64,000 nt of DNA. Source: Alphaproteobacteria bacterium. Lineage in GTDB: Bacteria > Pseudomonadota > Alphaproteobacteria > Micropepsales > Micropepsaceae. Both the position numbers and the translations under genes were made by a program. Of this stretch, positions 3,521 through 13,545 are shown piece by piece. Under the pieces are notes generated by a model. The model saw nothing but the letters and a program-made list of their open reading frames with translations. It searched no databases and was not told the origin of the DNA. Location of the stretch: positions 102,745-166,744 of the forward strand of contig CANJJD010000002.1 in the NCBI GenBank assembly GCA_947474645.1, in the 5' to 3' direction. Each line of letters begins with the position of its first letter. Positions within the stretch are counted from its first letter, which is position 1.

Positions 3521-3573
3521 CAATAGCGTTGCTGCCCCTTTTCCCCGATAAGCAAGCTAGGCGGGTGAGGCGC

Positions 3574-5043
3574 ATGCCCTTCAATTCCTATCCCTATTTC
3601 CTGTTCCTGGCCGTCGCGGTACTGGGCTTTCGCCTGCTGGAAAGCCGCGCCCTCACCGGCCGTCGGATATTGCTGCTGCTGGCCTCTTACGCCTTCTATG
3701 CCTGGTGGCGGGCCGACTTCCTGTTGCTGCTGTGCGGCTCGACCCTGGTGAACTACACGCTGGGGCGGGAAATCGAGCAGCGCCGCGCCAAGGGCCAAGG
3801 CCGCCGCCCCATTCTGATTGCGGGCCTGGTGTTCAACCTCGGGCTGATCGCCGCTTTCAAATATGCCGGCCTGCTGACGGGCACCGCCAACCAGTTGTTC
3901 GGCATCGGGCTGCCGCTGCCCGACTTTTTCCTGCCGCTGGCGATCAGCTTCTTCACCTTCGAGCAGATCAGCTATCTGGTCGATGCCGATGCGGGCAAGA
4001 CGGCGCGTTACAGCCTGCTCGATTACGCCCTGTTCGTCGCCTATTTCCCGCATCTCATTGCGGGCCCCATCGTGCGCCACAACGATTTGATCCCGCAGTT
4101 CCACCAGATGCGATCGCGCAATGACGATCTGGCGGCTGGTGTGACCCTGTTCACCATCGGCCTGGCCAAGAAAACCCTGATCGCCGACAATCTGGCGCCC
4201 TTCGCCGACGCCATCTTCAATGCCGCCGGGCGCGGCATTGCTTTGGGGCCCACCGATAGCTGGCTGGGCATGCTGTTCTTCGCCTTCCAGATCTATTTCG
4301 ATTTCAGCGCCTATTCCGACATGGCGCTGGGCTCCTCGTTGATGCTGGGCATCCGCCTGCCGGTGAATTTCCATTCGCCCTACAAGGCGGCCAGCATCAT
4401 CGAGTTCTGGCGGCGCTGGCATATCTCGCTGTCGGCCTTCCTGCGCGACTATCTCTACATCCCGCTGGGCGGCAACCGGCAGGGTCGCGGGCGGCGCTAT
4501 CTCAATCTCTTCGTCACCATGCTGCTGGGCGGGCTATGGCATGGCGCAAGCTGGACCTTCATGCTGTGGGGCGGACTGCATGGCCTCTATCTGTCCATCA
4601 ATCACGCCTTCCGCCATGCCAGCAAAGGCGTAGCCGCCCCTGCCGCGCTGAAGCAGCCGCTTCACATCGCGTCCGTGGCGCTGACCTTCCTGGCCACCTC
4701 GCTGGCCTGGATCGTGTTCCGCAGCCCCGACCTCGCCTCAGCCCGCAACATGGCGGGCGGCCTTGTCGGCCTGGGCCATTCCGCCGTTGTGAGTTTTTCG
4801 CCCCTGGCGGCGGCCACGCTGCTGCTGTTGTTCGGTTTGGTCTGGTTCATGCCCAATTCCATGGAATTGATGTGGCGGCATGACCCAGCCCTGCCCTCGC
4901 CTTACGATAACCAGCCCGTGAAACCGGCGAAATTCCTGTCCTGGAAGCCCACGCGATGGAATGCCGCCGCCTATGGCCTGCTCTGCATCGTGGCGGTGCT
5001 GGCGCTGTCCAATCTCAAACCCTTCATCTACTTCCAGTTCTGA
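3574..5043 (+). CDS. MBOAT family O-acyltransferase (AlgI/DltB-like)
   Basis: [56 protein letters not shown] (catalytic His), C-terminal FIYFQF. GAGG RBS before ATG 3574. Confidence 0.93.
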   Translation: [489 protein letters not shown]

Positions 5044-6065
5044 TGGAAAAGACCCGCTACCCCGTCTGGTTTTTGGGCACGGTGCTTGCGGCCATCGCGG
5101 CGCTGGCCGCGTTCAACGCCTGGGCGGAGCATTTCATCCTGACCCATCCCGCCGGCGGCAGCGTGCAGACCCTGTCGGGCTTTGAGCGTGCCGTGAAACC
5201 CGCCTGGCTGGAAGCGACCCGGCCCGAACTTGTCTTTGTCGGTTCCAGCCGGGTGCGCGACGCCTTCGATCCAGTCTTGATTGATCCGGCGCTGAAGATC
5301 CGCAGCTTCAACTACGGCGCCTCCAGCATGTCGCCCTATGAGGCGCGCCGCCTGGTGCAGGATGCGTTGGCGCATCCTTCCGTGAAGACGGTGGTGGTGT
5401 CGCTGGATGCCTTTACCGGCAACGGCGGCGCCGGCGAGGCCCTGCCCAGCTTTGACGAAACCCGCCTGGCGGTGACGCCGGCCGGCGATCCCACACCGCG
5501 CCGCGGCTTGTGGCTGTTCACCACCCGTTATCTCAGTGGCGGCGCGCTGGGCATGAATGCGCTGGGCATTTATGCGCTGGCACGGTTGAAGCCTGGCGAG
5601 ACCGCCGCCGATCGCCCCGACATCTTCAACGCCTATAGCCACATGACCGAAGCGGTGATGCGGCGCGACCTGGCGTACCGCCGGGCGCGCAGCATGAGCA
5701 TGGGCCCGCGCGCGCGCGGCGAACTGGTCGCGATGCTGGCCGCGGCCTGCCGCGCGAGCGCCAGGCTGATCGTCTACTTCCCGCCCGATCACACCGCCAT
5801 TGTGCGGCAGTACCGGCAGAGTGATGCCGCAGGCTTCACCGCCTTCAAGAAAAACGTCGCGGCCGAGGTCGCGCGCGCAAATGCAAGCTGCCCGGCCCAG
5901 ACGGAGCTGCTGGACTTCATGCAGCCGAACGCCCTCACCACCGAAACGATGGTGAAGGGTTCAAGTCCGGATTATGTGGATCTGGTGCATATCCGCCCGC
6001 CCGCAGGCCTCTGGTTGTTACGCCAGATGGGGCTATTGCGGCAGGGGAGCGTGACCGGAAACTGA
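5043..6065 (+). CDS. Membrane-anchored SGNH/DltD/AlgJ-like acyl-transfer partner
   Basis: Start overlaps the MBOAT stop (TGATG). N-terminal TM helix, FVGSSR block-I-like motif, C-terminal DxxH (DLVH). Confidence 0.72.
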   Translation: MEKTRYPVWFLGTVLAAIAALAAFNAWAEHFILTHPAGGSVQTLSGFERAVKPAWLEATRPELVFVGSSRVRDAFDPVLIDPALKIRSFNYGASSMSPYEARRLVQDALAHPSVKTVVVSLDAFTGNGGAGEALPSFDETRLAVTPAGDPTPRRGLWLFTTRYLSGGALGMNALGIYALARLKPGETAADRPDIFNAYSHMTEAVMRRDLAYRRARSMSMGPRARGELVAMLAAACRASARLIVYFPPDHTAIVRQYRQSDAAGFTAFKKNVAAEVARANASCPAQTELLDFMQPNALTTETMVKGSSPDYVDLVHIRPPAGLWLLRQMGLLRQGSVTGN

Positions 6066-6067
6066 CC

Positions 6068-6325
6068 TCAGGTGGAGGTGGCCGGGGTGACAACGGGGCA
6101 ATGGGCCGCGTCGCACGCGGCGCTGCTGGAGCCGCTGATGGCGACCGCGACCGCAACCACGGCGATGGCGATGCCGCCGCCGACCAGCAGCAAATTGGTG
6201 CGCCGCTGGGCTTCCTGCACACCAGCGGGCTTGCCGGCGGTCAGGGCCCCCTCGGCCGCAAGGGCTTGGGAACCCATCGCCGCCGCCAGTGCCATTGCCG
6301 TCGCAGCCTTGCGCAAATTCGTCAT
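6068..6325 (-). CDS. Small secreted/membrane peptide, GKPAGV family copy 1 (85 aa)
   Basis: AGGGGA RBS; signal peptide ending ALA|AEG; second hydrophobic helix; clear paralogue at 11612-11878. Confidence 0.82.
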   Translation of the reverse strand: MTNLRKAATAMALAAAMGSQALAAEGALTAGKPAGVQEAQRRTNLLLVGGGIAIAVVAVAVAISGSSSAACDAAHCPVVTPATST

Positions 6326-6431
6326 CGTCAGTCCCCTGAAATCCGCCATGTGCGGTGTAAAAGGTTGTTCCTGCTGGCCAATCACGGGCCGTCTCAGCGC
6401 TATTAGTACGGATAATCGCGGGATTGCAAAT

Positions 6432-6460
6432 GAACAATCACGGCAAAATCATGATTGTTC
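6432..6460. promoter_or_regulatory. Inverted repeat GAACAATCA-N11-TGATTGTTC, candidate operator in the divergent promoter region
   Basis: Perfect 9-bp arms. An internal palindrome AATCATGATT lies at 6447-6456. Confidence 0.45.
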
Positions 6461-6471
6461 TCTTTTTGTTT
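6457..6471. promoter_or_regulatory. Probable LexA box (GTTC-N7-GTTT) upstream of the FkbM-uvrA unit
   Basis: GTTCTCTTTTTGTTT is 13/15 identical to the ssb box and lies ahead of the transcript carrying uvrA, a canonical SOS gene. Confidence 0.65.
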
Positions 6472-6493
6472 TCGATGGCTCCGCAAAAAGGCT

Positions 6494-7357
6494 ATGAACA
6501 GGCCCATGGACTTGCTGACCGAGATTCTCAATCCCAAACGACTCACCGCCATCGTGGATGTGGGCGCCAATCCCATCGACGGCGATCCGCCCTACAAGGC
6601 GATGCTGGCGGCGGGCCTGTGCGAGGTGACCGGCTTTGAGCCGCAAGCCCATGCGCTGGCGAAGCTCGAACAGAGGAAGGGTCCGCGCGAACGTTATCTA
6701 CCGTACGCTTTGGGCGACGGAACTTCGCGCACGCTCCATGTCTGCGAACTGGAAGGCATGACCAGTTTGCTGGAACCCGACCCCGCACATCTGGCGCTTT
6801 TCAATTTGTTTCCTATATGGGGACAAGTGAAACAGCAGATCCCCGTCACCACCAGGAAACTGGACGATGTCGCAGAGATCGCCGTGATGGATTTCCTGAA
6901 AATGGACGTCCAGGGCGGCGAGCGCGATGTGCTGGCGCATGCCACAGCAAGGCTGAAGGACGCGGTGGCGGTCCAGACCGAGGTTTCCTTTGTTCCCCTC
7001 TACAAGGACCAGCCGCCCTTTGGCGAAATCGACCTGATGTTGCGGGAACTCGGCTTTCTGCCCCATTGCGTCACCGGCACCAAGATTTGGCCGCTATCGC
7101 CCCTGGTGGTGGGCAATGAACCCAATCGCGGCATCCGCCAATTGCTGGAAACCGACATGGTCTATGTCCGCGACATCAGCAAGCCGGAAGCCATAAGCAC
7201 CGAGCAATGGAAGCATCTCGCCCTGGTGGCGCACCATTGCTATGGCTCCTACGATTTGGCGCTGAAGGCCATCGTCACCCTGATGGAACTGGGCACAGTG
7301 CCCAAGGGCGCCAACACGCGTTATCTCGCCGGCCTGCCCGCCAGAAAATCGAACTGA
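6494..7357 (+). CDS. FkbM family SAM-dependent methyltransferase
   Basis: VDVGAN (motif I), [20 protein letters not shown] motifs. Start at 6494 or 6506. Confidence 0.85.
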
Positions 7358-10236
7358 TGCTGAAGAACATTTCCATTCGCGGTGCCCGCGAGCACAATCT
7401 CAAGAATATTGATGTCGAGATTCCGCGCGACACCCTGACGGTGCTGACCGGCCTGTCGGGCTCGGGCAAGTCGTCCCTCGCCTTCGATACCATCTATGCC
7501 GAAGGCCAGCGCCGCTATGTCGAATCGCTGTCAGCTTACGCCCGCCAGTTCCTGGAGCTGATGCAGAAGCCCGACGTGGACCATATCGAGGGTCTGTCGC
7601 CAGCCATCTCCATCGAGCAGAAGACCACCTCCAAGAATCCGCGCTCCACCGTGGGCACGGTGACCGAGATCTACGATTACCTGCGCCTGCTGTTCGCCCG
7701 CGTCGGCGTGCCCTATTCGCCGGCCACCGGACTTCCCATCGAAAGCCAGACCGTCAGCCAGATGGCCGACCGGATTCTCGCTTTGCCCGAAGGCACGCGG
7801 CTTTACCTGCTGGCGCCCATCGTGCGCGGCCGCAAGGGCGAATACCGCAAGGAACTGGCGGAGCTGCAGAAGAAGGGCTTCCAGCGCGCCAAGGTGGACG
7901 GCAAGTTCTACGACATCGGCGCCACACCGGCGCTGGACAAGAAGTTCAAGCATGACATCGAGATCGTGGTGGACCGCATCGTGGTCAAACCCGACATCGG
8001 CAACCGCCTGCCCGATTCCATCGAGACGGCGCTGGGCTTGGCCGACGGGTTGCTGGTGGTGGAATTTGCCGACGAGAAGGAAAAAGACGGCAAGCCGCGC
8101 CAGATGATGCTGTCATCCAAGTTCGCCTGCCCGGTCTCGGGCTTCACCATCACCGAGATTGAGCCGCGGCTGTTCAGCTTCAACAACCCCCATGGCGCCT
8201 GCCCGGAATGCGACGGGCTGGGGGTGCAGAATTACTTCGACGAAGCGCTGGTCGTGCCGGACGAGAGTCTGACCTTAAAGAAGGGCGCCGTGGCGCCCTG
8301 GGCCAAGTCGTCCTCGCCCTATTACCTGCAGACGCTCGAGGCCCTGGCCCGCCACTACAAATTCTCCATGAACGATGCCTGGGAAGACCTGCCCAAGAAG
8401 GCGCGGGACGTGATCCTGCACGGATCGGGCGAAGAAGTGATCAAGTTCACCTATGACGACGGCATGCGCCGCTATGACACCAAGAAGGAATTCGAGGGCG
8501 TCATCCCCAACATGGACCGCCGCTATGGCGAGACCGACAGCGCCTGGGTGCAGGAGGAACTGGAGCGCTTCCAGTCCGAAAGCCCTTGCGAGGTCTGCAG
8601 CGGCTACCGGCTCAAGCCCGAAGCCCTGGCGGTGAAGATCGGCGCCTTGCATATCGGCGAAGTCTGCAGCCAGTCCATCCGCGACGCCGATGGCTGGTTC
8701 CGCGATATCGACAAGAAGCTGAACAAGCAACAGCAGGAAATCGCCGTCCGCATCCTGAAGGAAATTCGCGCCCGGCTGAAATTCCTCAACAATGTGGGCC
8801 TGGACTATCTCACCCTGGCGCGCGCCTCCGGCACGCTGTCGGGCGGAGAAAGCCAGCGCATCCGCCTGGCCTCCCAGATCGGTTCGGGCCTGACCGGCGT
8901 GCTTTATGTCCTGGACGAGCCGTCCATCGGCCTGCACCAGCGCGACAACGGCAAATTGCTGGAATCGCTCAAGGGCCTGCGCGACATGGGCAATACCGTG
9001 CTGGTGGTGGAGCATGACGAGGACGCCATCCGCCAGGCTGACCATGTCATCGACATGGGCCCGGGCGCCGGCGTGCATGGCGGCCACATTATCGCCCAGG
9101 GCACCCCGGCCGACATCATCGGCAACAAGAAAAGCCTCACCGGAAAATATCTCAGCGGCGCCGAAAACATCCCCATCCCGGCCCAGCGCCGCAAGGCGGT
9201 GCATAACCGCTGGCTGAAAGTGGTGGGCGCGCGCGGCAACAACCTCAAGAACGTCACCACCCAGATCCCGCTGGGCACCCTGACCTGCATCACCGGCGTG
9301 TCGGGCGGCGGCAAGTCCACCCTGACCATCGAGACCCTGTTCAAAGCTGCGGCCAAGAAACTAACCCAGGCCCGCGAACAGCCGGCGCCGCATGACCGCA
9401 TCGAGGGGCTGGAGTTCCTGGACAAGGTCATCGACATCGACCAGAGCCCGATCGGCCGCACCCCGCGCTCCAACCCGGCCACCTATACCGGCGCCTTCAC
9501 TCCGATTCGTGACTGGTTCGCCGAACTGCCGGAATCAAAAGCCCGCGGCTATGCGCCCGGCCGCTTCAGCTTCAACGTCAAGGGCGGACGCTGCGAAGCC
9601 TGCCAGGGCGACGGCGTCATCCAGATCGAGATGCACTTCCTGCCCGACGTCTATGTCCAATGCGATGTCTGCAAGGGCAAGCGCTACAATCGCGAAACTC
9701 TGGAAGTGAAGTTCCGCGACAATTCCATCGCCGATGTGCTGGACATGACCATCGAGGCCGGCGCCGAACTGTTCCGGGCGGTGCCCTCCATCGCCGAGAA
9801 GCTGGAGACCCTCAAGCGCGTGGGCCTGGGCTATATCTCCATCGGCCAGCAGGCCACCACCCTGTCAGGCGGCGAGGCCCAGCGCGTCAAGCTGTCCAAG
9901 GAATTGTCGCGCCGCGCCACCGGCCGCACGCTTTACATCCTGGACGAGCCCACCACGGGCCTGCATTTTCATGACGTCAAGAAGCTCTTGGAAGTGCTGC
10001 AGGAGCTGGTGGACCAGGGCAACACGGTGGTGGTGATCGAGCACAATCTGGAAGTCATCAAGATCGCAGACTGGCTGGTAGATCTGGGACCGGAGGGCGG
10101 CGATGACGGCGGCGAGATCGTGGGCAGCGGCACGCCGGAAGACGTGGCGAAGAACCCGCGCTCCTATACCGGCCAGTATCTCAAGCCGCTGCTCAAGAAC
10201 GCGGCCGCGCCAAAACGATTGAAGGCCGCGCAGTAA
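7357..10236 (+). CDS. uvrA: Excinuclease ABC subunit A
   Basis: [13 protein letters not shown], two Walker A motifs ([18 protein letters not shown]), LSGGE signatures, Zn-finger cysteines. ATG 7357 overlaps the FkbM TGA. Confidence 0.98.
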
Positions 10237-11097
10237 TCAGGCTAGGATTTCGATCTTGGGCTCGTCCTTCAGGGTCCGCCAGACCGAAACGCTCGCGCCC
10301 GCCAGAAGCCCGATCATCAAAGGCGAGAAGAAAAAGCCCAGCCCGCAGGTCAGGGACAAGGTCTGGCGCGCATGCATCACCGCGGCGAGCATCTGGACCT
10401 GGGTTGTAGCGCCCGGCGTGACGTCGGGCTTGCCGCCCACTGCGGCATCGATCAGCGACACCACCAGCAGCAGCGGCAGGAACAGGCCCAGCAGCACGCC
10501 CAGCAGCGGCAGGAAATTGCCCGCCGAGAGCGTCCAGGCCCGGCGCAGCACCGGCGCGGCTTCGTTCACCGCAATCGCCGGCGCCAGCAGCAGGAAGCGC
10601 GCCAACACCACCACGCCGATGCCCAGCATGGCCATGATGGCAAAGGCGCCGGCCGCGCCCTGGCTTTTCGCCGCGCCCAGCATCAGAACGGCGTTGGCGC
10701 CGACCATGACGATCGCCGCCACCAGCAGCATCAGTCCGGCCAGGGCGAAGAACGCACGGAACATGCGCCATTCCAGCGGACCGAAGGCGAAATGAATGAC
10801 GGACGGCGCGGTGCGCGCGCCCAGCGCCAACTGGATCACCGCGGTGAACATCACCGCATAGAGCAGCATCACCGCCACCAGATAGCCCATCATCATCAGC
10901 ATCGCCGGGCCCATCTGGGCGCCGTTGCCGCTGGCGAGGAAATCGATGAAGTCGTTGTAGAAGCGGTAGAAGGTGAAAAAGCGGGCGACGGTGATCATCA
11001 CCATGGACACCCAGATCAGGCCTATGATCCCGCCCAGATTGGTGCCGGCGAAAATATAGGCGTCACGGATGGTCTGGGCGACGGGAATGCGCCGCAT
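10237..11097 (-). CDS. Hypothetical polytopic membrane protein
   Basis: About 6 hydrophobic segments and genome-typical codon use. Its stop abuts the uvrA stop. Confidence 0.7.
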   Translation of the reverse strand: MRRIPVAQTIRDAYIFAGTNLGGIIGLIWVSMVMITVARFFTFYRFYNDFIDFLASGNGAQMGPAMLMMMGYLVAVMLLYAVMFTAVIQLALGARTAPSVIHFAFGPLEWRMFRAFFALAGLMLLVAAIVMVGANAVLMLGAAKSQGAAGAFAIMAMLGIGVVVLARFLLLAPAIAVNEAAPVLRRAWTLSAGNFLPLLGVLLGLFLPLLLVVSLIDAAVGGKPDVTPGATTQVQMLAAVMHARQTLSLTCGLGFFFSPLMIGLLAGASVSVWRTLKDEPKIEILA

Positions 11098-11106
11098 CAA
11101 GCCTGC

Positions 11107-11361
11107 TCAGAACTCATCGAAGGGGCGTAGATCGTCGAACACCGGCGCCTTGGGCGCGGTTGCGTCCTGCCACAGGCCCATGGCCCAGGCGGTCACGGCG
11201 GCGGCGATGGGCAGCTTGGCCAGGCCCGCCAGGGGCTCGGTCACCAGGGCCAGGCGGCGGCGCGGGACAAACACGGCGACGCTCACGGCGGCAGCGGCCA
11301 GCAAGCCCGCTCCCAGCGCCAGCCTGGCGTAATTGGTACCCTTGTGTTCTTCCTCGGCCAT
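11107..11361 (-). CDS. Small hypothetical membrane protein
   Basis: MAEEEHKGTNYARLALGAGLL..., two hydrophobic stretches. Start at 11361 or 11370. Confidence 0.55.
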   Translation of the reverse strand: MAEEEHKGTNYARLALGAGLLAAAAVSVAVFVPRRRLALVTEPLAGLAKLPIAAAVTAWAMGLWQDATAPKAPVFDDLRPFDEF

Positions 11362-11552
11362 CGCACGCATTTCCCTGATTGAGCCTATATAGGTGGCGCT
11401 TGCGGCGCCGTCATCCATATCCTGTGCCGTTCCGACGCTTTCGCTCTTCCGTCTCCCAAAGGACGCAGGGCCCAGCATCTTCGCACGGACCCAAGACAAA
11501 AGCGTTAAAGCGGTGCCGAATTAAGGCAGAGCCAAGGTGAGCCCAGAACAGC

Positions 11553-11585
11553 AAAAAGCCTACCCTCTATCAGGAGAGCAGGCTT
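11553..11585 (-). terminator. Rho-independent terminator after GKPAGV copy 2
   Basis: AAGCCT...AGGCTT hairpin followed by a T-run on the minus strand. Confidence 0.65.
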
Positions 11586-11611
11586 CTGGCTATTCTTGAG
11601 AACGGATTGCC

Positions 11612-11878
11612 TTACGGCGAAGCTGCGTTCGTGGTCGCCACGGAGAATGTTTGGGTGGCCGGAACGCGATCACCACTCTCGTTGCCGACAATTACGGCCA
11701 CACCAGTGATAACCGCAGCGGCAACGGTGCCGATGATGATCGTGCCAGTACCAATTTCCTGGGCCTTGTTCACACCAGCGGGCTTGCCCGGAGCGAAGGC
11801 TCCGTCAGCGGCGAAAGCTGAAGTACCAATTAACGTTACCACCGAAACCGCGGCAACAGCAGTCTTAAAACCAAACAT
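11612..11878 (-). CDS. Small secreted/membrane peptide, GKPAGV family copy 2 (88 aa)
   Basis: AGGGGA RBS; signal ending AFA|ADG; hydrophobic helix; own terminator; paralogue of 6068-6325. Confidence 0.85.
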   Translation of the reverse strand: MFGFKTAVAAVSVVTLIGTSAFAADGAFAPGKPAGVNKAQEIGTGTIIIGTVAAAVITGVAVIVGNESGDRVPATQTFSVATTNAASP

Positions 11879-12177
11879 AGGCTTCCCCTGTTTATTTGAT
11901 GACCGGATACTTGTCCGAAGCTAGGACCCAAGTCAACCGGACTTTCTGGGTTCCTTTTTGACTGTTGCCAAAAAGCTTTACGGCGCTGCGAGGTCCGATT
12001 TCGCACACCATATCACAGGCCTGGCGCCACCCCTAGGGAATCGGCAAAAAGCCCAAAAATCCTCGAATTTCCCTGTAAAAAAACGGTTTTTTGGTCCCCT
12101 CCTTTGTTGCGGATGCGAAAAAACATGGGACCAGGGAGTTGTTTGCGCACCCTGCCCCGCCTGCTAAAGCCTGCCCC

Positions 12178-13545
12178 ATGACCAAAAAATTGCACATCAT
12201 TGGCGCCGGACTCGCCGGCTCCGAGGCCGCCTGGCAGGCCGCCAAGGCTGGCATCCCGGTGATTCTGCATGAAATGCGCCCCATCCGGGGCACCGAGGCG
12301 CACCAGACCGATTCTCTGGCCGAGCTTGTGTGCTCCAATTCCTTCCGCTCCGACGATGCCGCCAACAATGCCGTGGGCCTGCTGCATGAAGAGATGCGCC
12401 GCGCCGGCTCGCTGATCATGGCAGGCGCTGATGCTCACAAGCTGCCCGCCGGGGGCGCCCTGGCGGTGGACCGGCATGGCTTTTCGGCCGCCGTCACCGC
12501 CGCATTGGAGAATCATCCGCTGGTCACCATCGCCCGCGAGGAAATCACCGCCCTGCCCCCGGCCGATTGGGGATCTGCGATCATCGCCACCGGGCCCCTG
12601 ACCTCTGCCAGCCTGGGCGCCGCCATCGGCGAAGCCACCGGCCAGGACCATCTCGCCTTCTTTGACGCCATCGCGCCCATCATCCACCGCGAGTCGATCA
12701 ATTTCGACATCGCCTGGTTCCAGTCGCGCTACGACAAGGAAGGCCCCGGCGGCGGCGTGGCCGATTACATCAACCTGCCGCTGGACGAAGCCCAGTATAA
12801 AGCCTTTGTCGCCGCGCTGATCACCGGCGAAAAGACTGACTTCAAGGAGTGGGAAAAGACCACGCCCTATTTCGAAGCCTGCCTGCCCATCGAAGTGATG
12901 GCGGCGCGGGGCGAACAGACCCTGGCGTTCGGGCCGATGAAGCCGGTGGGGCTGATGGATCCGCGCACGGGCCAACGTGCTCATGCCGTGGTGCAGCTTC
13001 GCCAGGACAACAAGTTAGGCACCTTGTGGAACATGGTGGGTTTCCAGACCAAGCTGAAACATGCCGAGCAGGTGCGCATCTTCCGCACCATTCCGGGCCT
13101 GGAGGAGGCGCAGTTCGCGCGGCTGGGCGGGCTGCACCGCAACACCTTCATCAATTCCCCGCGCCTGCTCGACAGCCAACTGCGCCTCAAGTCACAGCCG
13201 CACCTGCGCTTCGCCGGCCAGGTGACGGGGGTGGAAGGCTATGTCGAAAGCGCCGCCATCGGCCTGTTGGCGGGCCGCTTTGCCGCCGCAGAACTGGCAA
13301 GCGCGGAAGGGCTGGCCCCGCCCCCCACCACCGCGCTGGGCGCCCTGATCTCCCACATCACCGGCGGCGCCGACGCCCGCACCTTTCAGCCCATGAATGT
13401 CAATTTTGGATTGTTCCCGGAATTTCCCAAATCGGCGAAAATCCGCGGGAAAGACCGCAAGCAGGCGATGAGCGCGCGGGCGCTGGAAGACTTAAGCGTC
13501 TGGCTGGGGCACTCCATTCCGCGAAGTGGGCAGGCCGCCGAATAG
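12178..13545 (+). CDS. trmFO: Folate/FAD-dependent tRNA (uracil-54) methyltransferase
   Basis: [61 protein letters not shown]. Confidence 0.96.

Follow-up and report, generated by a model that had tools for sequence, protein, structure and literature searches.

Here, we present an analysis of a family of small exported proteins with two members, hereafter copy 1 and copy 2, encoded in a 64,000-nucleotide stretch of DNA (the window; contig CANJJD010000002.1, positions 102,745 to 166,744 of the forward strand) from the alphaproteobacterial assembly GCA_947474645.1 (Micropepsales, Micropepsaceae). Both proteins feature a signal peptide, a conserved core including the residues GKPAGV, a hydrophobic helix and a polar tail. 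They are probably small Sec-exported envelope proteins of a divergent, order-specific and multi-copy branch of the YjbE/GfcA family (PF11106), which is named but uncharacterised, and their most likely role is that of cargo or partner of the outer-membrane module comprising YjbF, GfcC and YjbH. We read the YjbE/GfcA equivalent in a polysaccharide cluster of the same genome as the founding member, and the other copies, including both window genes, as dispersed monocistronic paralogues. An earlier sequence-only reading of the window had described a family of processed membrane peptides expanded on the chromosome; a real expanded family of small proteins, exported or in the membrane, is indeed present, with eight copies in the source genome and up to 16 in its relatives. 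It had also regarded the family as one without a name, which our assignment to PF11106 (YjbE, with GfcA as its E. coli paralogue) replaces; the named family that is matched is itself functionally uncharacterised.

Background

To our knowledge, the role of YjbE and GfcA in capsule export has been open since 2005. Both are required components of export modules for capsule or exopolysaccharide that are widespread, and a need for such proteins in making exopolysaccharide or group 4 capsule has been published for the E. coli gfc and yjb genes only (PMC8592465, PMC13621845). GfcA is a small Ser/Thr-rich inner-membrane or secreted protein of unknown function, and the loss of any gfc gene disrupted the buoyancy phenotype of the capsule (PMC8592465). 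Expression of the group 4 capsule needs all seven gfc genes, gfcA included, and the cell anchor of this capsule is unknown (PMC13621845). GfcA and YjbE have been described as 'entirely uncharacterized', with no known activity (PMC11494523). Among the other components, GfcB, the fold of which resembles LolA, binds GfcD jointly with GfcC (PMC8592465, PMC9603273), and GfcD and YjbH are double barrels, in which the N-terminal half is like the amyloid exporter FapF (PMC9603273).

Association with yjbF, the GfcC module and yjbH

The source genome (2.64 Mb, 64% GC) contains eight paralogues with one shared layout, on which protein, motif and profile searches agree. One of the eight resides in a polysaccharide cluster, of which the relevant features are the following:

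G000:C2:14000-30000 (locus L013), on the contig of the window and about 90 kb upstream of it: complete polysaccharide cluster with galU, yjbF, the GKPAGV paralogue, manC, an outer-membrane polysaccharide export (OPX) gene, yjbH, a gene for a 325-aa protein without Pfam match, a gene for a Wzy_C protein, and gmd
C2:17930-18208, convergent to yjbF and 77 bp from it: cluster GKPAGV paralogue; the adjoining YjbF/GfcB lipoprotein is matched at 125 bits
C2:23268-25616: YjbH/GfcD homologue, 610 bits, 5 kb from the cluster paralogue

Between the pair of yjbF and the GKPAGV paralogue on one side and yjbH on the other lie manC and the gene for a 1027-aa OPX protein (Poly_export plus SLBB). The C-terminus of this protein matches the C-terminal domain of GfcC (GfcC_C) at 23.3 bits, which is above the cut-off, and the protein fits the 'Class 2 OPX with integrated GfcC module' of PMC9603273. 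The cluster is an instance of the 'Class 2 OPX plus GfcD-like barrel' pairing reported by Saidi et al. 2022. As YjbF, the GfcC-OPX protein, YjbH and a GKPAGV protein share one cluster, all four parts of gfcABCD/yjbEFGH are present, and the GKPAGV protein of the cluster holds the YjbE/GfcA role in the source genome. E. coli YjbE is likewise genomically linked to yjbF, the GfcC module and yjbH.

All 21 yjbH loci inspected, comprising that of the source genome and 20 more from relatives, contain a family member arranged as yjbF-> <-member. The gene orders in the relatives are yjbH-> yjbF-> <-member or galU-> yjbF-> <-member, with the intervening yjbF confirmed for the genome G041. Among 121 genomes of the order, the family and YjbH occur together in 58, the family alone in 9 and YjbH alone in 17, with 37 having neither, which corresponds to an odds ratio of 14 for co-occurrence (Fisher p=5e-10, ignoring phylogeny). 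A family member is found at most 6 kb from yjbH in at least 34 genomes and at most 1.2 kb from it in 16, and genomes with a single copy usually carry that copy at the yjbF/yjbH locus. Further, in two of the nine genomes with the family only (G108 and G019), yjbF stands beside the member at the end of a contig, and the missing yjbH is therefore probably an assembly gap.

Sequence comparison with YjbE and GfcA

The link to YjbE is settled by this genomic evidence. The evidence from sequence alone would be shaky, being largely of low complexity. When 105 family members were scanned against Pfam one by one, PF11106 ('Exopolysaccharide production protein YjbE'; 79-position model, gathering cut-off 27.9 bits) was by far the commonest match, with 19 of the 105 members matching at E<0.01. 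Only one member, P0200, passes the cut-off (34.1 bits, profile positions 9-79 of 79), and a genome-wide search with PF11106 yields the yjbF-adjacent paralogue as its sole match, at 19.2 bits and under the cut-off.

The homologues of E. coli YjbE are mostly enterobacterial near-identical sequences or frame-shifted fragments, and YjbE was therefore used as a single sequence in hhalign. The family profile (A2) aligns with YjbE at a probability of 83.5% (E=8e-6, 69 columns) and a profile of the 20 yjbF-adjacent members (A3) at 91% (E=1e-6, 24 columns), with the reservation that low-complexity composition inflates such scores. The first of these alignments runs end to end and pairs A-PLAPGKPAGV with A-PVQVGEAAGS, and the second covers the turn and the poly-Thr run together with the last part of the hydrophobic segment.

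The shared architecture consists of a length of about 80-100 aa, a signal peptide, a Gly/Ala/Val segment, a turn of Gly/Asn/Asp/Ser and a Thr-rich C-terminus. In E. coli YjbE (about 80 aa; b4026, the first gene of yjbEFGH), the Sec signal peptide ends AxA as in the family (AWA/A; here and below, a slash marks the cleavage site), and the mature protein begins A-P-x-x-x-G-x-x-A-G, with APVQVGEAAGS corresponding to APLAPGKPAGV. YjbE also shares the Gly/Ala/Val stretch, the sequence GGGDGSN as a turn of the G-G-D-G-S-N type, and a C-terminal run of Thr (T7). Unlike the family, it does not contain GKPAGV as such, and its hydrophobic stretch amounts to about 9 residues compared with a full helix of 18-22 residues in the family, for which reason the E. 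coli protein is probably periplasmic and soluble. GfcA (YmcD, b0987, 'threonine-rich inner membrane protein'), encoded by the first gene of the group 4 capsule operon gfcABCDE-etp-etk, resembles the family in a signal peptide ending AFA/A and in a long hydrophobic segment of Gly/Ala/Val/Thr followed by N-D-S-G-D-G-G and a Thr-rich end; this part can be compared with VIVGNESGDR in copy 2 and VVSNQSGDR in its orthologues. GfcA differs from the family in having a long Thr-rich stretch ahead of the hydrophobic segment, where the family has GKPAGV.

Size, conservation and distribution of the family

A profile built from the eight paralogues was searched against 1.84 billion representative proteins clustered at 50% identity, and retrieved 743 clusters at E<=1e-3, of which 93 reach E<=1e-10, with almost all proteins measuring 72-95 aa. 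The family-wide statistics given here rest on an alignment of 105 members. The sequence-only reading had proposed a constant motif combined with a variable polar tail, and both are borne out across these members, every one of which also begins with a signal peptide that looks cleavable. In the motif L-x-x-G-K-P-A-G-V-x-x-A-Q, the Gly and Ala of PAG-V-x-x-A are invariant, and the Ala at position -1 of the signal peptide as well as L, G, K, P and A of L-x-x-G-K-P-A are conserved in at least 90% of members. The motif ends about 10 residues ahead of the most hydrophobic 18-residue window, which has a mean Kyte-Doolittle value of 2.5 and consists of 24% A, 20% V, 16% G, 15% L and 15% I. The hydrophobic helix as a whole comprises 18-22 residues of Gly/Ala/Val/Ile/Leu and is followed by a turn of Ser/Gly/Asn/Asp and then by a Thr/Ser/Pro tail with a median length of 21 residues (27% T, 18% S, 12% G, 9% N, 9% A, 8% P), often ending in G-T-[SA]-P. 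This tail is nearly uncharged, with a mean of 0.5 Lys+Arg and 0.64 Asp+Glu per protein. The mature N-termini vary among the paralogues, and include AD in some and AE, DT, AP or EP in others; a mature Ala-Asp acting as a peptidoglycan-linking motif of the Rhizobiales type was set aside, as only some of the paralogues start with AD.

This layout bears on two of the roles that had been suggested from the sequence. In M13/fd procoat, signal peptidase I removes a 23-aa leader, and the mature protein begins AEG... and has a single hydrophobic helix. The family shares its 23-aa leader, short N-terminal ectodomain and single hydrophobic helix, and weak TrbC/VirB2 matches in Pfam were obtained for 5 of the 105 members (best E=7e-4), so that subunits of a filament or surface fibre similar to phage procoat, Flp/type IV pilin or VirB2 pilin had to be considered. 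All TrbC matches are, however, below the 27.9-bit cut-off, and PHROG gives no matches; no solved structure of a natural protein was matched either, the profile search of the PDB yielding only a designed helical repeat (E=0.0018). The tail lacks the basic character of the DNA-binding C-terminus of procoat and is instead an uncharged Thr/Ser/Pro tail, the cleavage site is of the AxA type, and no prepilin motif (G/FxxxE or G/xxxxEY) is present. No pilus, Tad, type IV secretion or phage genes adjoin any of the eight copies, in agreement with the earlier observation that phage genes are missing nearby, and the family genes differ from that of M13 procoat in being chromosomal, vertically inherited and multi-copy. 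We hence regard the filament explanation, including the procoat and pilin reading of the sequence-only analysis, as extremely improbable. The helical-hairpin insertion of M13 procoat would nevertheless be a fair model, by analogy, for how the family proteins enter the inner membrane.

Many paralogues in which a constant motif precedes a hydrophobic helix and a variable tail could also be expected of precursors of ribosomally synthesised and post-translationally modified peptides (RiPPs) or signalling peptides, or of bare C-terminal sorting signals of the sortase, exosortase or rhombosortase type. Against this explanation, neither a modifying enzyme, a peptidase-ABC exporter nor a sortase-like gene, and no maturation or export gene of the RiPP kind, stands beside any copy; the proteins have no passenger domain and no basic C-terminal cluster, their conserved part is N-terminal, and their variable part is Thr/Ser of low complexity. 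The architecture also departs from that of LPXTG, PEP-CTERM and GlyGly-CTERM signals in that the motif ends about 10 residues before the helix and the uncharged tail has about 21 residues. The NCBIfam scan of the 105 members did not identify any family, its sorting-signal models matching nothing but one CoaP_CTERM (E=0.0018, 1 of 105 members), and a literature search for 'GKPAGV' returned no papers. Overall, we find the RiPP, signalling-peptide and sorting-signal explanations very unlikely.

The family is almost confined to one alphaproteobacterial order, that of the relatives of Rhizomicrobium. It was found in 67 of 121 sampled genomes of the order, with 1-14 copies each, and with 16 copies in the genome G009, and it was absent from all 16 genomes sampled elsewhere in the class, outside the taxonomic family of the source genome (f1). 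A sample of 300 genomes of the class contained a single matching genome outside f1. For copy 2, 178 homologues were retrieved at 58-86% identity, all of about 88 aa and with every source name being 'hypothetical protein', and the named homologues belong to Rhizomicrobium, which NCBI places in Micropepsales, and to metagenome-assembled genomes (MAGs) named 'Alphaproteobacteria bacterium'.

The two genes of the window

The two genes and their parts, all on the minus strand, are as follows:

6068..6325 (-): copy 1 coding sequence, 85 aa, stop included in the span, starting MTNLRK..., with the parts MTNLRKAATAMALAAAMGSQALA/AEGALTAGKPAGVQEAQRRTN-LLLVGGGIAIAVVAVAVAI-SGSSSAACDAAHCPVVTPATST and the whole protein MTNLRKAATAMALAAAMGSQALA/AEGALTAGKPAGVQEAQRRTNLLLVGGGIAIAVVAVAVAISGSSSAACDAAHCPVVTPATST
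6257..6325 (-): copy 1 signal peptide, residues 1-23, ending A-L-A (ALA/A), read from the sequence
6206..6256 (-): copy 1 conserved core AEGALTAGKPAGVQEAQ, with GKPAGV at 6218-6235, from the alignment of 105 members
6137..6193 (-): copy 1 hydrophobic Gly/Ala/Val/Ile segment, residues 45-63, from the family hydrophobicity statistics
6071..6136 (-): copy 1 Ser/Thr/Pro tail with the CDAAHC pair; CxxxC/CxxxxC recurs in the orthologous lineage
6332..6337 (-): copy 1 AGGGGA ribosome-binding site (tcccct on the plus strand), 6 nt from the ATG
11612..11878 (-): copy 2 coding sequence, 88 aa, stop included in the span, starting MFGFK..., with the parts MFGFKTAVAAVSVVTLIGTSAFA/ADGAFAPGKPAGVNKAQEIGTG-TIIIGTVAAAVITGVAVIVG-NESGDRVPATQTFSVATTNAASP and the whole protein MFGFKTAVAAVSVVTLIGTSAFA/ADGAFAPGKPAGVNKAQEIGTGTIIIGTVAAAVITGVAVIVGNESGDRVPATQTFSVATTNAASP
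11810..11878 (-): copy 2 signal peptide, residues 1-23, ending A-F-A (AFA/A), from the sequence and helix 4-23 of the AlphaFold2 (AF2) model
11759..11809 (-): copy 2 conserved core ADGAFAPGKPAGVNKAQ, with GKPAGV at 11771-11788, from the alignment and a loop in the AF2 model
11684..11743 (-): copy 2 hydrophobic segment, residues 46-65, from AF2 helix 36-65 and the hydrophobicity statistics
11615..11683 (-): copy 2 polar tail (NESGDR...TTNAASP), disordered in the AF2 model, with a predicted local distance difference test (pLDDT) score of about 55
11884..11889 (-): copy 2 AGGGGA ribosome-binding site, 5-6 nt upstream of the ATG
11545..11596 (-): copy 2 intrinsic terminator, a hairpin plus UUUUU; folding gives -32.8 kcal/mol and z=-5.41, with 0 of 200 shuffles as stable

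The architecture that had been described for the pair, with 23-aa signals ending A-x-A, a shared core, a helix and a polar tail, is thereby confirmed: the cores AEGALTAGKPAGVQEAQ and ADGAFAPGKPAGVNKAQ are identical at 11 of 17 residues, and the two proteins align in BLASTP at 35% identity over 68 aa (E=4e-10), and copy 1 scores 92.3 bits with the family hidden Markov model (A1). With eight such genes in the genome, the resemblance of the pair goes well beyond chance. The reported ribosome-binding sites, the terminator of copy 2 and the Cys pair of copy 1 could likewise all be located, and this pair is retained as CxxxC or CxxxxC across the orthologous lineage of copy 1. In the tail of copy 2, the N-Q/E-S-G-D-R turn and a T-F-x-x-A-T-T...P ending are kept in the orthologues. 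The AF2 model of copy 2, made with the family alignment, consists of a helix at 4-23, a non-helical motif loop at 24-35, a helix at 36-65 and a disordered tail, with a mean pLDDT of 64.6. The folding check did not find a terminator for copy 1, and a Rfam scan of window positions 5000-13000 found no RNA family. A scan for the sigma-70 consensus found no promoter, although the same scan overlooked the terminator of copy 2 that folding confirmed.

Both genes are coding, under purifying selection and have their own positional orthologues. In a Rhizomicrobium sp. MAG (GCA_035693565.1, locus L009), the gene order is the same as in the window, namely trmFO, copy 2, a small open reading frame (ORF), a 287-aa membrane protein, uvrA, an FkbM-type methyltransferase, copy 1 and the gene following MBOAT. 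The positional orthologue of copy 1 lies at 11705-11980 of this locus and includes the Cys pair, and that of copy 2 adjoins trmFO. Relative to these syntenic Rhizomicrobium orthologues, copy 2 has a dN/dS of 0.19 and copy 1 a dN/dS of 0.45.

Evidence against the assignment and the competing explanation

Several results weigh against reading the window genes as YjbE/GfcA-type partners of the Yjb module. Neither copy 1 nor copy 2 has a PF11106 match even at E<=10, and Pfam and NCBIfam scans of both proteins yield noise only (HbpS-like, CwsA, CcmE, all below cut-off). With E. coli GfcA, the family profile A2 aligns in hhalign over the signal peptide alone (7.8%), and part of the homology evidence from sequence rests on segments of low complexity. 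Some 90 kb separate the window copies from the yjbF/yjbH cluster, and the genes around these copies are uvrA, trmFO, the MBOAT pair and hypothetical membrane proteins. The cluster member is convergent to yjbF and there are up to 16 copies per genome, whereas E. coli yjbE is a single-copy gene co-transcribed upstream of yjbF. Seven genomes of the order (G022, G129, G133, G062, G016, G096 and G137) have 1-4 members each with no detectable YjbF or YjbH, among them G022, which is 97% complete and contains clear orthologues of both copy 1 and copy 2. As these genomes keep members in such a setting, the dispersed paralogues may work without the Yjb machine. In addition, a standard insertion, consisting of a cleaved leader and a stop-transfer helix, puts the tail in the cytoplasm, whereas the conserved Cys pairs, poly-Pro and poly-Thr of the tails look extracytoplasmic.

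On the serious rival explanation, the dispersed copies would be generic small proteins that cross the inner membrane once, such as modulators of membrane enzymes or envelope-stress micro-proteins, not tied functionally to Yjb/Gfc export. Their likeness to YjbE would be one of composition, namely of the signal peptide and the Thr run, and only the yjbF-adjacent copy would be related to polysaccharide. The window copies without a PF11106 match and the seven genomes without YjbF or YjbH speak for this explanation. So does the location of six of the eight paralogues, which stand singly outside the polysaccharide cluster among the housekeeping genes hfq-hflX, mfd, trxB, aroA-cmk, uvrA (at uvrA/FkbM/MBOAT) and trmFO, and so does the hydrophobic segment, which at its Kyte-Doolittle value makes a good transmembrane helix, compared with the only about 9 residues of E. 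coli YjbE. However, all eight paralogues match the yjbF-adjacent copy in motif, spacing and tail type, so that their common ancestry with it is not in doubt. Moreover, the member in single-copy genomes is typically the one at yjbF/yjbH, and the hhalign alignment to YjbE extends beyond the tail over the full length. Taking both sides together, we consider generic membrane proteins unlikely, and favour the assignment of the window genes to a branch of the YjbE/GfcA family.

Proposed role and topology

For the YjbE/GfcA-type proteins proposed here, the mature protein would be anchored in the inner membrane via the hydrophobic helix after cleavage of the signal peptide, and the GKPAGV stretch would be periplasmic. 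This constant motif may serve as a handle for a shared partner, for which the LolA-like lipoprotein YjbF and the YjbH double barrel are candidates; YjbF is the first candidate, because its gene pairing with a family member is fixed. The variable Thr-rich tail would then be the working or displayed end, and the paralogues could represent alternative cargoes, partners or adaptors of one outer-membrane machine for export or anchoring.

Some of the yjbF-adjacent members, at L027 5900-6277 (G103) and L034 5824-6132 (G073), carry a C-x4-C pair in the tail and, behind it, poly-Pro and/or 9-11 consecutive Thr. Such tails resemble a mucin-like stalk, look extracytoplasmic and are at odds with a simple N-out/C-in topology.

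A more far-reaching version, which we regard as rather improbable and put forward tentatively, is that mini-proteins of the YjbE/GfcA type serve as cargo for the outer-membrane module of Yjb/Gfc and constitute the capsule anchor that has long been sought. Here, YjbF/GfcB, being LolA-like, would extract the hydrophobic helix from the inner membrane and deliver it to the FapF-like or laterally open YjbH/GfcD barrel, and the Thr-rich tail, possibly glycosylated by the Wzy_C-family enzyme of the cluster, would be displayed at the surface or hold the polysaccharide there. In the order studied here, up to 16 interchangeable cargoes with one GKPAGV docking handle and different tails could thus form a peptide-anchored, combinatorial surface coat. 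The idea of export through YjbH with anchoring or decoration of polysaccharide was also raised by Larson et al. and Saidi et al.

Codon-level features of the pair

The sequence-only reading had pointed out an 18-nt stretch that is identical between the two copies even at synonymous sites. This identity, GGCAAGCCCGCTGGTGTG, is real at both sites (the reverse complement of 6218-6235 and of 11771-11788), but it is not a feature of the family, since the other six paralogues and the Rhizomicrobium MAG orthologues of both copies carry different synonymous codons there. From the codon usage of the genome, the chance that one pair matches at all six codons is about 0.012. Given this chance and the differences in the other paralogues and orthologues, the identity holds no nucleotide-level signal; it is private to copy 1 and copy 2 and is due to chance or a small local conversion. 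A nucleotide-level constraint is ruled out by the same synonymous differences.

The richness of copy 2 in T-ending codons, which had also been pointed out, is confirmed. The frequency of T at third codon positions (T3) is 0.33 in copy 2. The genome has a mean T3 of 0.13, the highest value for any of its 1887 long ORFs being 0.29, and in copy 2 the GC content at third positions (GC3) is 0.56 against 0.80 in the genome. In the Rhizomicrobium orthologue of copy 2 (L009 6001-6264), the bias is kept at a T3 of 0.32 despite a dS of about 1.2. Codon bias of high expression was rejected as its source: the highly expressed AtpD, DnaK, GroEL and RpsA of the source genome have T3 values of only 0.06-0.08, and ordinary expression-linked bias fails for copy 2 because these housekeeping genes show the opposite tendency.

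Neighbouring genes

Between copy 2 and uvrA, window positions 10237-11499 (-) encode two conserved hypothetical membrane proteins (287 aa and about 83-130 aa) without Pfam match, and this pair of genes sits likewise in the Rhizomicrobium MAG (L009 6490-7617). Copy 2 and the pair may belong to one unit, even though copy 2 ends at a terminator of its own. On the other side, at 3529-6065 (+), a 369-aa ORF without Pfam match comes after a MBOAT gene (126.8 bits); this ORF is convergent to copy 1 and stops 2 bp from the stop of copy 1. The Rhizomicrobium MAG retains the pairing with copy 1 and with the FkbM-type methyltransferase. At 7207-7357, the uvrA ORF, with its predicted start at 7207, overlaps the end of the FkbM-like gene (6455-7357); judging from the start of the L009 orthologue, the true start of uvrA is probably near 7360, right after the methyltransferase stop.

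Significance

Our verdict is that the family represents neither an unknown kind of protein nor a new system, and that it is an expanded, motif-bearing variant of the YjbE/GfcA mini-proteins and as such an informative natural variant. In practical terms, more than 700 protein clusters receive a family assignment. The lineage offers a natural experiment, in which a mini-protein with a near-invariant and, by inference, periplasmic motif is present in 8-16 copies with varied Thr/Ser/Pro tails, sometimes without the export genes. The motif L-x-x-G-K-P-A-G-V-x-x-A-Q and the partner set of YjbF, the GfcC module and YjbH provide testable points, and the expansion of copies around one constant handle is the pattern expected of substrates or adaptors.

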